Shown here in pieces: positions 2,692-7,548 of a DNA stretch of 8,073 nucleotides. The stretch is from a virus. Lineage: Duplodnaviria > Heunggongvirae > Uroviricota > Caudoviricetes. Every line of letters begins with the position of its first letter. The stretch's first letter is position 1. The notes beneath the pieces were generated by a model, which saw only the letters and a list, made by a program, of their open reading frames with translations, searched no databases and had not been told where the DNA came from. The stretch lies in IMG/VR virus record IMGVR_UViG_3300039367_000078; one strand, written 5' to 3'. Both the position numbers and the translations under genes were made by a program.

Positions 2692-2814
2692 ATGCACGGT
2701 AATTCTGAAATGCAAAAAATCAACCAAACCAGCGCAATGCCTGAAAAAACTGACGTTCACTGGAGTGGTCGGTTTAGCGTTGCACCAATGCTCGATAGGA
2801 TGTACCGTTTTTGA
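2692..2814 (+). pseudogene. dusA: Displaced 5' fragment of tRNA-dihydrouridine synthase A gene (first 35 codons of dusA, then 5 non-native codons and stop)
   Basis: Translation MHGNSEMQKINQTSAMPEKTDVHWSGRFSVAPMLD-RMYRF*. The first 35 residues match the E. coli DusA N-terminus as I remember it (MHGNSEMQKINQTSAMPEKTDVHWSGRFSVAPMLDWTDRH...); similarity stops at 2796/2797. ORF is only 40 codons, so it is absent from the six-frame track. Confidence 0.8.
2770..2800. other. Putative attL junction (crossover region) of a dusA-integrating element
   Basis: The point where the dusA reading frame stops matching DusA (after codon 35, position 2796) marks the chromosome/element boundary; the recombination core should lie in the roughly 20-30 bp ending here. 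Exact limits cannot be set without the other junction or an empty-site sequence. Confidence 0.45.
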
Positions 2815-2916: not shown

Positions 2917-2945
2917 TTGACCAAAAACAACCGCGGTTATAGACT
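2917..2945 (+). promoter_or_regulatory. Candidate sigma-70 promoter for the two-gene cargo module
   Basis: TTGACC (2917..2922), 17-bp spacer, TAGACT (2940..2945); a CTAAG...CTTAG palindrome (about 2959..2975) lies just downstream near the predicted transcription start; GAGG RBS at 2990..2993 precedes ATG 2999. Confidence 0.3.
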
Positions 2946-2998
2946 TTGCTCCAAATAGCTAAGGCTATTGCTTAGTAAGTAAAACAGTTGAGGTTGCC

Positions 2999-3538
2999 AT
3001 GAATCCGTTTAACGCCATTACTTTTGCTGCATTGTGCGGGCCTCTGGCTTGTCCTGCTGCTATGGCGCAGGAGTTCATCATCCAGCCAGCCCCTGTGATT
3101 GCTAAACCTTTTGAGTACTCTCCTTCTGTTGAGGAATTCTCACGCAAAATGGAAGAGGGTAAGGAGATCTTGCAAAAGTTAACAATTGCAGCAGATGACT
3201 ACTATATCTGTTTGATTGATCTTAATAGCCAAGATGCTCGCGAGTTTGTTTCCAAAAACGGGACAGATACGACAGAGGCATGCGAAATGTTCCTGCGTGC
3301 TTTTGAAGAAGAAGTGAAGCGTACAATTGAATCGCCTCTGCCTGAATTTATCAGGTCAGAACTGAAGGTTTACTGGCGTCATATTGCTAAAGCTCGCTCA
3401 TCTGTCACTCGCCTTAACAATTACATAAAGAGCATATTTAAAGAAACTGTTACTTTTAGCGGGCGCGCGGATCTTGCTGGAATTGCAGCACTAGCTAGTC
3501 ACACATCAAATAAGCTAAAATCGATGCAATTTCACTAA
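2999..3538 (+). CDS. Hypothetical protein, 179 aa; first gene of the cargo pair and candidate non-canonical antitoxin/partner of the YafO-like toxin
   Basis: ORF with GAGG 5 nt upstream of ATG 2999; stop TAA 3536..3538 lies 16 nt before the next ATG. N-terminus (MNPFNAITFAALCGPLACPAAMAQEF) is hydrophobic but has no basic n-region, so it is not a convincing signal peptide. No Phd/YefM, RHH or HTH signature recognisable by eye. Confidence 0.65.
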   Translation: MNPFNAITFAALCGPLACPAAMAQEFIIQPAPVIAKPFEYSPSVEEFSRKMEEGKEILQKLTIAADDYYICLIDLNSQDAREFVSKNGTDTTEACEMFLRAFEEEVKRTIESPLPEFIRSELKVYWRHIAKARSSVTRLNNYIKSIFKETVTFSGRADLAGIAALASHTSNKLKSMQFH

Positions 3539-3554
3539 CCGATAGCGGACGACC

Positions 3555-3989
3555 ATGCATCTAGAAGTCTCTATTAATCCAGAAACTAGAGCTGAATTTT
3601 TTGATGAAGTTTTTCTCAAATTCCCGGAGCTAGAGTCTTCTATCATTGATGATTTCAAGAGATACAAAGCAACCGGTGAGCTTCCGCATTATTTCGGTAG
3701 GGACGTTGCGTATACTCAGCCTTATGGTGCTTTTCGGGCTGGGTTGATGCATATCCATCTTTGTCTACCGCCAAACAAGTTTCCCGAGAAACTTCCACAA
3801 CCGGATAGGGTCTGCAAGAAAGGTGATCCTGATAATGATGCTTGTCTTGTGTATGTCCAAGGTGAGCTTTATGAGAATAAATATTCACTCATTGCTATTA
3901 TGTATCCCGATGCACATGAAAAAGCAAGAAAACATGATGTGATGAGCTATCTGGCGCGAATTGCCCAGAATTATAAAGATGAAAACTAA
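3555..3989 (+). CDS. YafO-family toxin-like protein (putative ribosome-dependent mRNA interferase), 144 aa
   Basis: Translation contains DFKRYKATGELPHYFGRDVAYTQPYG...LMHIHLCLPPNKFP...DACLVYVQGELYENKYSLIAIMYPDAHEKARKHDVMSYLARIAQNY, which aligns by eye with my recollection of E. coli YafO (DFISYKRDGVLPDTFGRDALYDD...VAHIHLANENNPFP...EAHLVYCQGAFDEQAWLLIAILKPEPHKLARDNNQMHKIGKMAEAF). From memory, not verified by search. Confidence 0.65.
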   Translation: MHLEVSINPETRAEFFDEVFLKFPELESSIIDDFKRYKATGELPHYFGRDVAYTQPYGAFRAGLMHIHLCLPPNKFPEKLPQPDRVCKKGDPDNDACLVYVQGELYENKYSLIAIMYPDAHEKARKHDVMSYLARIAQNYKDEN

Positions 3990-4009
3990 CCCGCCGAAGC
4001 GGGTTTTTT
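3989..4009 (+). terminator. Rho-independent terminator closing the cargo module (partly bidirectional, between convergent genes)
   Basis: Stem CCCGC (3990..3994) / GCGGG (3999..4003) with CGAA loop, extendable by A-T pairs, followed by TTTTTT (4004..4009); lies between the convergent stops at 3989 and 4016. Confidence 0.75.
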
Positions 4010-4015
4010 GTGAGA

Positions 4016-4288
4016 TTAGTTATTTATTTTCCTATTTGTTCTTACCCTCTCCCATTCAATTCTGCCTTCTTCACGCCGTTTATCTATATATTCAGCAAGA
4101 TCCTGAATGTTGATGCAGCGCTTTGCTTTCTGTGATGTACCAACACGATAAGTCGGGATCGGCAACTGGCATGCATTTGCTTTCGCTTCTGCTGTGTTAG
4201 GGCTCATACCGAAATACTTTTGGCATACAGCTGACAGCTCAATGTTTGGGGTATTGAATTCAGCCATCAGTAAAAACAAGGTGTTCAT
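4016..4288 (-). CDS. PrtN/AlpA-like small phage transcriptional regulator (pyocin-activator-like), about 90 aa
   Basis: Translation MNTLFLLMAEFNTPNIELSAVCQKYFGMSPNTAEAKANACQLPIPTYRVGTSQKAKRCINIQDLAEYIDKRREEGRIEWERV... resembles PrtN-family proteins (MNT-FLLMAE...CEKYFG...). Start ATG at plus 4286..4288 chosen because GGAG lies 6 nt upstream on the minus strand; the ORF-track start at 4315 is a GTG without RBS. Confidence 0.65.
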   Translation of the reverse strand: MNTLFLLMAEFNTPNIELSAVCQKYFGMSPNTAEAKANACQLPIPTYRVGTSQKAKRCINIQDLAEYIDKRREEGRIEWERVRTNRKINN

Positions 4289-4324
4289 AATTTTCTCCAT
4301 CAAAACCGGCTGCACCCGGGAAAA

Positions 4325-5706: not shown

Positions 5707-6068
5707 TATGCTCCAGCCTCCGGTGCTTTTGGCATTACTGCCCAGTGAGTGATATTGACGTTTTCAAGGTCCCCGACCTGAAATGTCCACTGCCATTCTC
5801 CGGTTTCTTTTTGCCCCCATGTATACCAGAGAGAACGCCAGCCAATCAGCCAGCCTTCTCCATTAGCATCAAATAACAGAATACTTTCATTCGCTGGCGG
5901 CAGTTCAGCTGACACTGGTATTACTTTGTTTTCCAGTGCTGCACATTTAGCTTCAAGCGCATCAAATTTACGCACCAGGTACTCAGCATTTGTTTCATTC
6001 ACTTTCAGATCTCGTGGTACACATTTCCCGCGAAGAAACCCTTCCATTTCGAAAACATTCATGCGCAT
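5706..6068 (-). CDS. Small phage protein, 120 aa, Trp-rich (possibly DUF551/YfdS-like)
   Basis: Translation ...ILLFDANGEGWLIGWRSLWYTWGQKETGEWQWTFQVGDLENVNITHWAVMP; GGAG 8 nt upstream of the first ATG (plus 6066..6068); an alternative ATG at 6060..6062 forms an ATGA overlap with the upstream stop. Family assignment from memory and tentative. Confidence 0.65.
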   Translation of the reverse strand: MRMNVFEMEGFLRGKCVPRDLKVNETNAEYLVRKFDALEAKCAALENKVIPVSAELPPANESILLFDANGEGWLIGWRSLWYTWGQKETGEWQWTFQVGDLENVNITHWAVMPKAPEAGA

Positions 6069-6672: not shown

Positions 6673-7548
6673 TTAATTACGTTTCCATAAATGCCCCCGC
6701 AGGGGCATTTGCAGTAATGAAATCAGGCGGTGAAAGTACNNNNNNNNNNNNNNNNNNNNNNNNNNNNNNNNNNNNNNNNNNNNNNNNNNNNNNNNNNNNT
6801 TAGCCATTTCTTCCTGCACTGCTTCCAGCTGAATAATGCGCAGAACCAGTACAGGACGATCGCCAGTGATAATGCTGAGGCGTAATTTAAATGGACGTTC
6901 TTTCAGACCTTCAAACGGAACGCATTTAAATTCAAATGCCACTGGCATAATATCTTTGGTCTTCGCTTCGACAGACTCCATCAGGGAGCGTTTGCCGCTG
7001 AAGTCATTATCTTCAAAATCAGCGGTCTGGTTTGCTTCAATCGTGATTTTACGGACTGCCGCAGCCGCTTTTGTTGCCTGAATAGCGTCACCATTAGCAT
7101 CAAAGCCCACAAGGTAGTCGGCCCAGTCTTCAATCCATTCTGCCAGTGACTTCTGGGAGTTACGCTCGCCATTAACAGACAACAGAGCAGAGAACGGTGC
7201 TGTCTTTTTCAGTTTGAGAGTGGCGGTGTTATCTGCGTGACCTGGTTCATCAATAGTACCCAGGTTAATCACACTGACGGCTCGCATATTATCGGCATCG
7301 ATAAAGCAGCGGGTGCCTTCATCTGCAAGATCTTTAGAATAACGGGTAAAGTCATCGATGCTGGCAGTGGAAAGCGCACCACGGAAACGGAAGCGATTTA
7401 AATTAAATTTCTCCAGATCATGAATGCGGAAATTCTCAGGCAATGCCACAGCATCGGCACCAATCTTACTGATAATTTCATTAACACCCTGAGCAGAAAT
7501 AAGGGCATGGATTTGATTAATTGCGGTTGCGTCTAAGTTCTGAGACAT
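6673..7548 (-). CDS. DUF2303/YfdQ-like prophage protein; 3' end unresolved because of the N-run
   Basis: ORF from ATG (plus 7546..7548; GAGGA 4 nt upstream), translation [67 protein letters not shown]... Well supported from 7548 down to 6800. The post-gap tail (6673..6739, [21 protein letters not shown]) spans the hairpin and looks non-coding, so the true stop is probably in or near the gap. Confidence 0.6.
6689..6710. other. Perfect 9-bp inverted repeat / hairpin (AAATGCCCC-cgca-GGGGCATTT)
   Basis: Seen directly in sequence, located between the YfdQ-like gene and the YfdR-like start. No adjacent U-tract on either strand, so not a canonical intrinsic terminator. Confidence 0.6.
6740..6799. 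other. Run of 60 N (assembly gap or masked sequence)
   Basis: Literal n characters in the input; falls in the 3' region of the YfdQ-like ORF. Confidence 0.99.

Follow-up and report, generated by a model that had tools for sequence, protein, structure and literature searches.

In toxin-antitoxin-chaperone (TAC) systems, composed of HigB, HigA and a SecB-like chaperone, an extra hydrophobic and aggregation-prone segment of the antitoxin ties its fate to the chaperones of the export pathway. Some of the TAC systems take part in phage defence (PMC11980606). ToxM, a BECR-fold toxin fused to a transmembrane and a periplasmic domain, was called by its author the first possible membrane-associated type II complex (Gerdes 2025, PMC11980606). 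For YafO, a 2025 survey of the RelE superfamily simply gives the order antitoxin-then-toxin (PMC11980606). YafO toxins without an antitoxin were reported from prophages such as those of Pseudomonas aeruginosa, and Pseudomonas homologues are so listed (PMC10449497), while in a Salmonella prophage a yafO-like gene is paired with a ydaS-like gene (PMC9836087). Here we analyzed a two-gene cassette in a window of 8,073 nucleotides (nt), which is the whole stretch of DNA under study (IMG/VR virus record IMGVR_UViG_3300039367_000078). In this cassette a YafO-family toxin gene is preceded by the gene of an unrelated 179-aa protein, hereafter the partner, which belongs to PHROG 8416 and begins with a signal-peptide-like segment.

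The fixed partner family of this phage-borne YafO subfamily was previously unrecognised. No paper on this YafO-partner pairing or on a signal-bearing antitoxin was found in the literature, and no described type II antitoxin was found with a signal-peptide-like N-terminus. Our best reading of the cassette is that of a toxin-antitoxin or exclusion pair, type II-like but non-canonical, in which the partner represents a new family. From the sequence evidence we put the probability that the partner directly neutralises the toxin at roughly one half. A preliminary description of the same DNA had proposed, in hedged form, that the pair is a toxin-antitoxin system or acts in abortive infection, and that it includes a novel antitoxin or sensor. 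In view of the match to YafO models, the co-occurrence of the two genes and the lack of a known antitoxin signature, this is still the best reading.

The YafO-family toxin and its partner

The two open reading frames (ORFs) of the cassette, proposed to lie on the same strand with a gap of 16 nt, were confirmed (Table 1). The second gene had been called YafO-like on the basis of short motifs, and all of these motifs are present. Its product matched the Pfam family YafO_toxin (PF13957) with 76.5 bits against a cut-off of 25, over profile positions 1-100 of 101, and the same domain was detected in all 43 of its close homologues. BLASTP gave 36% identity to K-12 YafO over 117 residues (E 2e-19). 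The score against the NCBIfam YafO equivalog NF007377 was 75.8 bits, which is under the cut-off of 153, indicating that the toxin is a member of the family in a separate subfamily and not an orthologue of K-12 YafO.

An AlphaFold2 (AF2) model of the toxin, calculated from 28 homologues, displayed the HigB/RelE fold with a mean confidence (pLDDT, predicted local distance difference test) of 95.7, and its closest structural match was HigB2. Residues H66, I67, H68, F47-G48, D50, R85, Y100 and H121 were invariant or nearly so in 28 toxin homologues. The conservation of these catalytic-type residues suggests that the toxin is under selection as an enzyme. No hydrophobic N-terminus was found in the toxin, and there was no significant match in a PDB sequence search and none in PADLOC-DB 2.0. 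Its PHROG is phrog_1651, a family of unknown function. By homology and by its model, the toxin is a YafO-family mRNA endonuclease of the RelE/HigB fold, predicted to act in the cytoplasm.

The partner is divided into a signal-peptide-like segment (residues 1-23), a variable disordered linker (25-43) and a helical bundle (44-174). Its AF2 model (pLDDT 78.9) showed an N-terminal helix at residues 6-24, disorder at 25-43 and five bundle helices at 44-74, 77-87, 90-110, 116-146 and 159-174. The bundle carries the motifs ACE.FLRAFE, YWR.IAKARS..TRLN and L..LA..T, and most clades have a C-terminal F-H. The family is very small. A set of 5.8 billion proteins contained 22 of its clusters at 90% identity, and 23 representatives were present at 50% identity in a set of 1.84 billion. 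Almost all members have a length of 172-205 aa. Full-length homology between the main clade and a distant 'GLLMQQ' clade was confirmed by profile-profile comparison (98.8%).

The partner had been said to carry no known antitoxin signature, and every search was in agreement with this. There was no significant match in Pfam, NCBIfam, PADLOC or PDB sequences, no similarity to YafN and no known antitoxin or DNA-binding domain such as Phd/YefM, ribbon-helix-helix (RHH), helix-turn-helix (HTH) or AbrB. Fold searches returned generic helical bundles only, and Foldseek against BFVD gave nothing at E<=0.001. The best match in PADLOC-DB 2.0 was to a model of unknown function (E 0.017, 13 bits). DUF5076, EndoDuHalo and PDLC01048 matched the partner weakly (E 0.017-0.12) and were set aside as noise. 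The partner is labeled hypothetical in RefSeq. The label 'YafM antitoxin' in the GenBank record of phage PhiR40_1 was taken as a positional guess, apparently made because of the position of the partner. K-12 b0228, which we take to be the gene formerly named yafM, is annotated as rayT, a REP-associated transposase.

A tabulation of homologue neighbourhoods, which the preliminary description had proposed as a check, placed the partner beside a YafO-like gene in every locus examined and directly upstream of it in 18 of 18 independent lineages. When the search started from the partner, eight of eight other loci had a YafO-like gene directly downstream; these were from Phytobacter, Enterobacter and two Pantoea (L003-L006) and from four IMG/VR phage contigs of the distant clade (L015-L018). 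When it started from the toxin, a partner member of 177-190 aa was found directly upstream in every context, including Photorhabdus, Gilliamella, Providencia, Yersinia, Rahnella and Klebsiella oxytoca as well as a metagenomic phage, HK639 (genes 17 and 18) and Pseudomonas phage YMC11/02/R656. The intergenic spacing ranged from a 4-nt overlap to 20 nt. The cassette was detected in 48-53 of 5,426 complete Escherichia coli genomes (~1%), and the two genes were never separated. Pairwise identities of partner and toxin were correlated (r 0.85), and the partner was the faster-evolving protein in 99% of the comparisons (mean identity 36% vs 56% for the toxin), as antitoxins typically are.

The strict co-inheritance is equally compatible with a partner that acts as an activator or chaperone for the folding or activity of the RNase instead of inhibiting it. 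For example, infection might disturb the proton motive force or Sec, and the precursor that piles up in consequence could activate the toxin; the signal-like segment would then couple the cytoplasmic abundance of the partner to export status. We consider this very improbable. There is no known precedent for it in the RelE/YafO superfamily, and antitoxins, like the partner, usually lie upstream and evolve faster. K-12 YafO is reportedly active without such a factor (Zhang et al. 2009, cited in PMC9836087).

The location of the pair at the attachment site had been regarded as typical of prophage cargo. The location itself was verified in this window, where the cassette lies ~200 bp inside attL; the position is incidental, because the same cassette fills other slots in other phages. 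It is situated at the prophage end in this window and in Phytobacter, around the tape-measure gene in Enterobacter, Pantoea, HK639, Yersinia, K. oxytoca and Providencia, in the baseplate cluster in Photorhabdus, between antiterminator Q and the lysis genes in Rahnella, beside tail-fibre and lysis genes in Gilliamella, and downstream of a cI-like repressor in the metagenomic phage and Pseudomonas phage YMC11/02/R656. One further cassette locus is apparently chromosomal. The cassette is a self-contained moron that comprises a promoter of its own, two genes linked in translation and a terminator, and it moves as a unit.

Some of these loci had further features. The cI-like repressor gene (HTH and S24 peptidase) has the same strand as the cassette and lies just upstream of it (L029/L030, 908-2867; YMC11/02/R656). 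A position downstream of cI is the place of rexAB in lambda and suggests expression in the lysogen. In Yersinia mollaretii (L023/L024, 828-2938) the cassette directly follows a ParD-ParE pair and an extra ParD gene, which together form a small toxin-antitoxin island between the tail-tube and tape-measure genes of a prophage. E. coli SX12 encodes the cassette both on the chromosome (NZ_CP142783.1) and on a 55.6-kb 'plasmid' (NZ_CP142787.1), and the latter record could represent either a circularised copy of the excised prophage or another element related to it.

A related pair was identified on SSU5-like phage-plasmids, namely Klebsiella pJN2-26 (874-1911 of the locus) and E. coli CMS-2020a (883-1911). 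Their YafO-like gene is ~30% identical to the toxin of the window and has a gene for a 202-205-aa protein upstream, and the pair adjoins an integrase gene. The 202-205-aa protein shares the core motifs ..IRGLEGF.. and ..R.A.SDL..ILNQ.. and the C-terminal FSFH. It lacks a hydrophobic N-terminus, and the stretch that comes after its N-terminus is basic and probably disordered. It is probably a distant branch of the partner family, with a homology that sequence comparison supports moderately. If it is homologous, the lack of a hydrophobic segment in this branch implies that the helical core can work in the cytoplasm.

The signal-peptide-like N-terminus

The N-terminus of the partner had been described as hydrophobic. 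This part of the description stands, and it is corrected here to the more specific anatomy of a Sec signal peptide. Residues 1-23 (nt 2999-3067) read MNPFNAITFAALCGPLACPAAMA and are followed by QEF. The segment consists of MNPFN, then AITFAALCGPLA, then CPAAMA before QEF, with an AxA site, so that both an h-region and a c-region with small residues at -3/-1 are present. A rule-based signal check, demanding a 9-mer Kyte-Doolittle core >=1.5, an uncharged run and a -3/-1 site, was applied to 52 family members and passed by 48 of them. In the main clades the -3/-1 site was found at aligned residue 23 (with a slash after -1: AMA/QE, ALA/HE, VLA/RE, TLA/QG and SLA/DV). The n-region is rich in K/R in all clades outside the Escherichia/Pantoea/Serratia group. 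Textbook-like signals are displayed by Pseudomonas phage YMC11/02/R656 (MARTKVPFSKVAMLSLALSVSTSCA/QL) and by the metagenomic phage (MKNQVKNQSKASGALMASLLALSMGMTASTLETVQA/S).

Between clades the N-terminal segment was 19% identical and the rest of the partner 24%. At 19% identity, the conservation of the segment is the physico-chemical one expected of signal peptides. A Tat signal was ruled out, RR being present in two members only (P0084, L016), and so was a lipoprotein signal, since the canonical L-[AS]-[GA]-C lipobox was found in 0 members. Judged by its residues, the N-terminus of the partner looks like a Sec signal peptide across the family, which would imply export. This anatomy makes a plain cytoplasmic antitoxin doubtful.

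A neutralising partner could be reconciled with such a segment as follows. As long as the partner has not left the cytoplasm, its helical core would bind and neutralise the toxin, and partner molecules not bound to toxin would be directed by the N-terminal segment to the inner membrane or the Sec machinery. The pool of free partner would be kept short-lived, without a protease degron, by export or by capture at the membrane, instead of or besides proteolysis. When synthesis of the partner stops, by host shut-off through an infecting phage or by loss of the element, the toxin would be freed; a changed membrane or Sec status might be a further way of release. The freed toxin would cleave mRNA, and growth arrest, abortive infection or addiction would follow. 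The core is proposed as the cognate neutraliser on account of the antitoxin-first order, the tight coupling, the faster evolution of the partner and the cytoplasmic branch on plasmid-like elements. Such elements typically carry addiction modules. The complete export-coupled system, in which a secretory-precursor antitoxin is removed by Sec export and not by Lon/Clp, is a tentative and rather unlikely extension of this reading.

Several observations weigh against a neutralising partner with such a segment. If the partner is exported efficiently, it would sit in the wrong compartment for neutralising a cytoplasmic RNase. The n-region MNPFN has no K/R, and the same is true of every member of the Escherichia/Pantoea/Serratia clade. 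Residues 1-33 are the best-conserved part of the partner in the clade of the window, which is atypical for a signal peptide; conserved as they are and without a K/R n-region, they could have another role, e.g. toxin binding. The partner lacks a DNA-binding domain and any clear acidity, and the toxin for its part is not basic. The kinship of the phage-plasmid protein is also modest in numbers, with 26 bits against the distant-clade profile (E 3e-10, for a single target), an hhalign probability of 73.5% and no match to the main-clade profile. Charge complementarity was dropped as a criterion, the isoelectric points of partner and toxin being uninformative.

The conservation of residues 1-33 is also what favours an ordinary cytoplasmic antitoxin, in which the N-terminal segment would be a toxin-binding element or membrane tether and the bundle a dimerisation or operator-binding domain. 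The constraint on these residues acts at the protein level, with synonymous differences of 0.34 and non-synonymous differences of 0.17. A constraint on the N-terminal codons at the DNA or RNA level was ruled out, as synonymous sites vary. The uncharged n-region in the clade of the window, the analogy to the N-terminal neutralising segment of HigA2 and the structure of HigB2 as the closest to that of the toxin point in the same direction. The signal anatomy, however, is family-wide and not confined to one clade, and we regard an ordinary cytoplasmic antitoxin as improbable.

The same family-wide anatomy, canonical in several clades, argues for an envelope function. In this case the exported partner, in the periplasm or on the outer face of the inner membrane, would block or sense the entry of a superinfecting phage, and in the cytoplasm the YafO-like RNase would serve as effector, either latent or under indirect control. 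The cassette would then be a two-compartment defence module and not a toxin-antitoxin system. The charges flanking the hydrophobic segment favour an N-in, C-out orientation. The cassette occupies moron slots expressed in the lysogen, including the one directly downstream of a cI-like repressor where lambda has rexAB, and it is also found among tail-region morons for lipoproteins and secreted proteins. A BECR toxin with a membrane link was recently proposed in the form of ToxM (PMC11980606). On the other side, a cleaved and soluble periplasmic protein would have no evident way of signalling to an RNase in the cytoplasm, and the cassettes have no conserved third gene. With a promoter that looks constitutive, the lysogen would be expected to suffer if the RelE-fold RNase were left unneutralised, and the probable relatives on phage-plasmids do not have the hydrophobic segment. 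Efficient export of the partner would favour an envelope function, which is conceivable and rather doubtful; neutralisation of the toxin by the partner is the reading that we prefer.

What the cassette would mean depends on the role of the partner. An antitoxin role would tie control of the toxin to the membrane or to protein export, and a role as periplasmic factor would make the cassette a new two-compartment exclusion module. Should the export-coupled reading be true, the cassette would read transcription or translation shut-off, or the status of the membrane or Sec, during phage attack, and a new principle of antitoxin lability and of abortive-infection triggering would be carried by temperate phages of Enterobacterales and Pseudomonas. 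Culturable phages with the cassette are PhiR40_1, PhiR55_1 and HK639, the last of which is a studied phage, and strain ECOR13 has it as well.

Expression signals and prophage context

The pair had been proposed to have its own promoter, to end in a strong terminator and to converge with the phage operon, and all three were found (Table 1). The -35 (TTGACC or TTGCTC) and -10 (TAGACT or TAAACT) elements occur with the same spacing in the five closest cassettes, orthologues from four other genera included, and the flanks of these cassettes are unrelated. Just 3' of the -10 element there is a palindrome, with the variants ATAAC..GTTAT in locus L005 and TAAGC..GCTTA in L006 (loci L003-L006 at ~5955-5975). 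It may be an operator or a hairpin at the 5' end. A conserved palindrome at the promoter resembles those of autoregulated type II modules and is a further point in favour of an ordinary cytoplasmic antitoxin. The leader RNA did not fold better than shuffled sequence (z 0.62) and Rfam gave no match in the window, so a structured RNA in the leader was ruled out.

Table 1. Positions of the cassette genes, their signals and adjoining features in the window
Feature	Position	Strand	Basis
Partner gene, 179 aa, PHROG 8416 (function unknown)	2999..3538	+	AF2, PHROGs, family alignment
YafO-family toxin gene, 144 aa, RelE/HigB (BECR) fold	3555..3989	+	Pfam, BLASTP, AF2
Sigma-70-type promoter, TTGACC-17 nt-TAGACT	2917..2945	+	Consensus scan
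Palindrome ATAGC-TAAG-GCTAT, just 3' of -10	2955..2968	+	Symmetric substitutions in orthologous loci
Ribosome-binding site GAGGTTG of the partner gene	2990..2996	+	Identical in 5/5 aligned cassettes
Bidirectional intrinsic terminator AACCCGC-CGAA-GCGGGTT and T run	3988..4011	.	Hairpin 3988-4005
attL junction of the dusA-integrated prophage	2788..2795	.	K-12 dusA 5' region sharing ends ...ATGCTCGA
PrtN/AlpA-family small DNA-binding protein gene	4016-4315	-	Last gene of early-left operon, converges on cassette

The terminator overlaps the stop codon of the toxin gene and is common to the cassette and the convergent PrtN-like gene. No small ORF is conserved, and the cassette has no room downstream for a third gene; a hidden third gene or small antitoxin was therefore ruled out. 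In the 'GLLMQQ' clade (HK639 locus, ~1885-1920; loci L015-L017) a conserved GTCAGAGGTACTCC element precedes the partner gene. Base-pairing is possible between its CTCC(T) and the (A)GGAG ribosome-binding site ~10 nt downstream, and the element could provide anti-Shine-Dalgarno control of translation.

The prophage is lambdoid and integrated in dusA. The left part of the window corresponds to the yjbJ-zur-DUF2713-dusA region of E. coli, and BLASTN homology to MG1655 stops at window position 2795, within the 5' end of dusA. The remnant ORF of the host dusA 5' end is located at 2686-2814 and has a short out-of-frame tail at its end. Phage record PV340560 starts at about window position 2778, and everything to the right of ~2778 in the window matches the left end of PhiR40_1 (from ECOR13) and PhiR55_1 with 100% identity. 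The integrase and a replacement dusA 5' end are encoded at the opposite end of the phage genome (PV340560, 40960-42251). This arrangement, with a phage-borne dusA 5' end beside the integrase at the distal end of the phage, is characteristic of integrases specific for dusA. Since phage identity starts at ~2778 and the integrase is at the other end, the cassette is the first feature inside attL.

The cassette is followed by the convergent PrtN/AlpA-like gene, which could encode an excisionase or regulator, and then by the rest of the early-left operon (3'-5' exonuclease, Ea22-like, YfdR, YfdQ and YfdP). A PrtN-family gene was also observed near the cassette in the metagenomic phage (locus L029). 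The GC content of the cassette is 42.7%, compared with 47% for the adjoining phage operon. In the host part, a DUF2713 ORF of 334 aa (1326-2330, 33% GC) stands where K-12 has the separate genes yjbL and yjbM, and homology to K-12 is broken between 1814 and 2322 in this region. One genome that is identical in other respects has this ORF annotated as a pseudogene with a frameshift. The YfdQ-like gene (6673-7548, minus strand) contains 60 consecutive masked bases (N, 6740-6799), which give X residues in its translation.

Comparison with known systems

Like lambda RexA/RexB, the cassette consists of two prophage-borne cargo genes that have expression signals of their own, and some cassettes are situated directly downstream of a cI-like repressor. 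The two pairs have no similarity in sequence or fold; RexB is a polytopic membrane protein and RexA is not an RNase.

The K-12 YafN-YafO module (dinB-yafN-yafO-yafP) is alike in its toxin family, PF13957, with the HIHL, FGRD and LVY.QG motifs, and in its partner-then-toxin order with a short gap. However, YafN is a 97-aa protein of the Phd/YefM type, whereas the partner of the window is unrelated to it, twice as long and has a signal-peptide-like N-terminus. The yafNO genes of K-12 are part of an SOS operon, while the cassette is phage cargo with its own promoter.

The organisation of the cassette is that of type II modules, as the two genes form a bicistronic, adjacent, same-strand, closely spaced and conserved pair; the partner, on the other hand, has none of the known antitoxin or DNA-binding domains. 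It thereby differs from HigB2/HigA2 and other RelE-superfamily type II modules, being without an HTH, RHH or Phd domain. The terminal segment of HigB2/HigA2-type modules is amphipathic or acidic, while that of the partner is uncharged and signal-peptide-like.

The TAC systems have in common with the cassette a RelE/HigB-fold toxin and an extra hydrophobic segment on the antitoxin or partner. Unlike in TAC, no third gene for a SecB-like chaperone was found in the 18 cassette contexts. In addition, the segment of TAC is a C-terminal chaperone-addiction tail, while that of the partner is N-terminal and has a signal-peptidase-type site. ToxM likewise links a toxin of the RelE superfamily to the envelope. 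There the membrane segment belongs to the toxin, whereas in the cassette of the window the toxin is soluble and the signal-like segment is carried by the partner.

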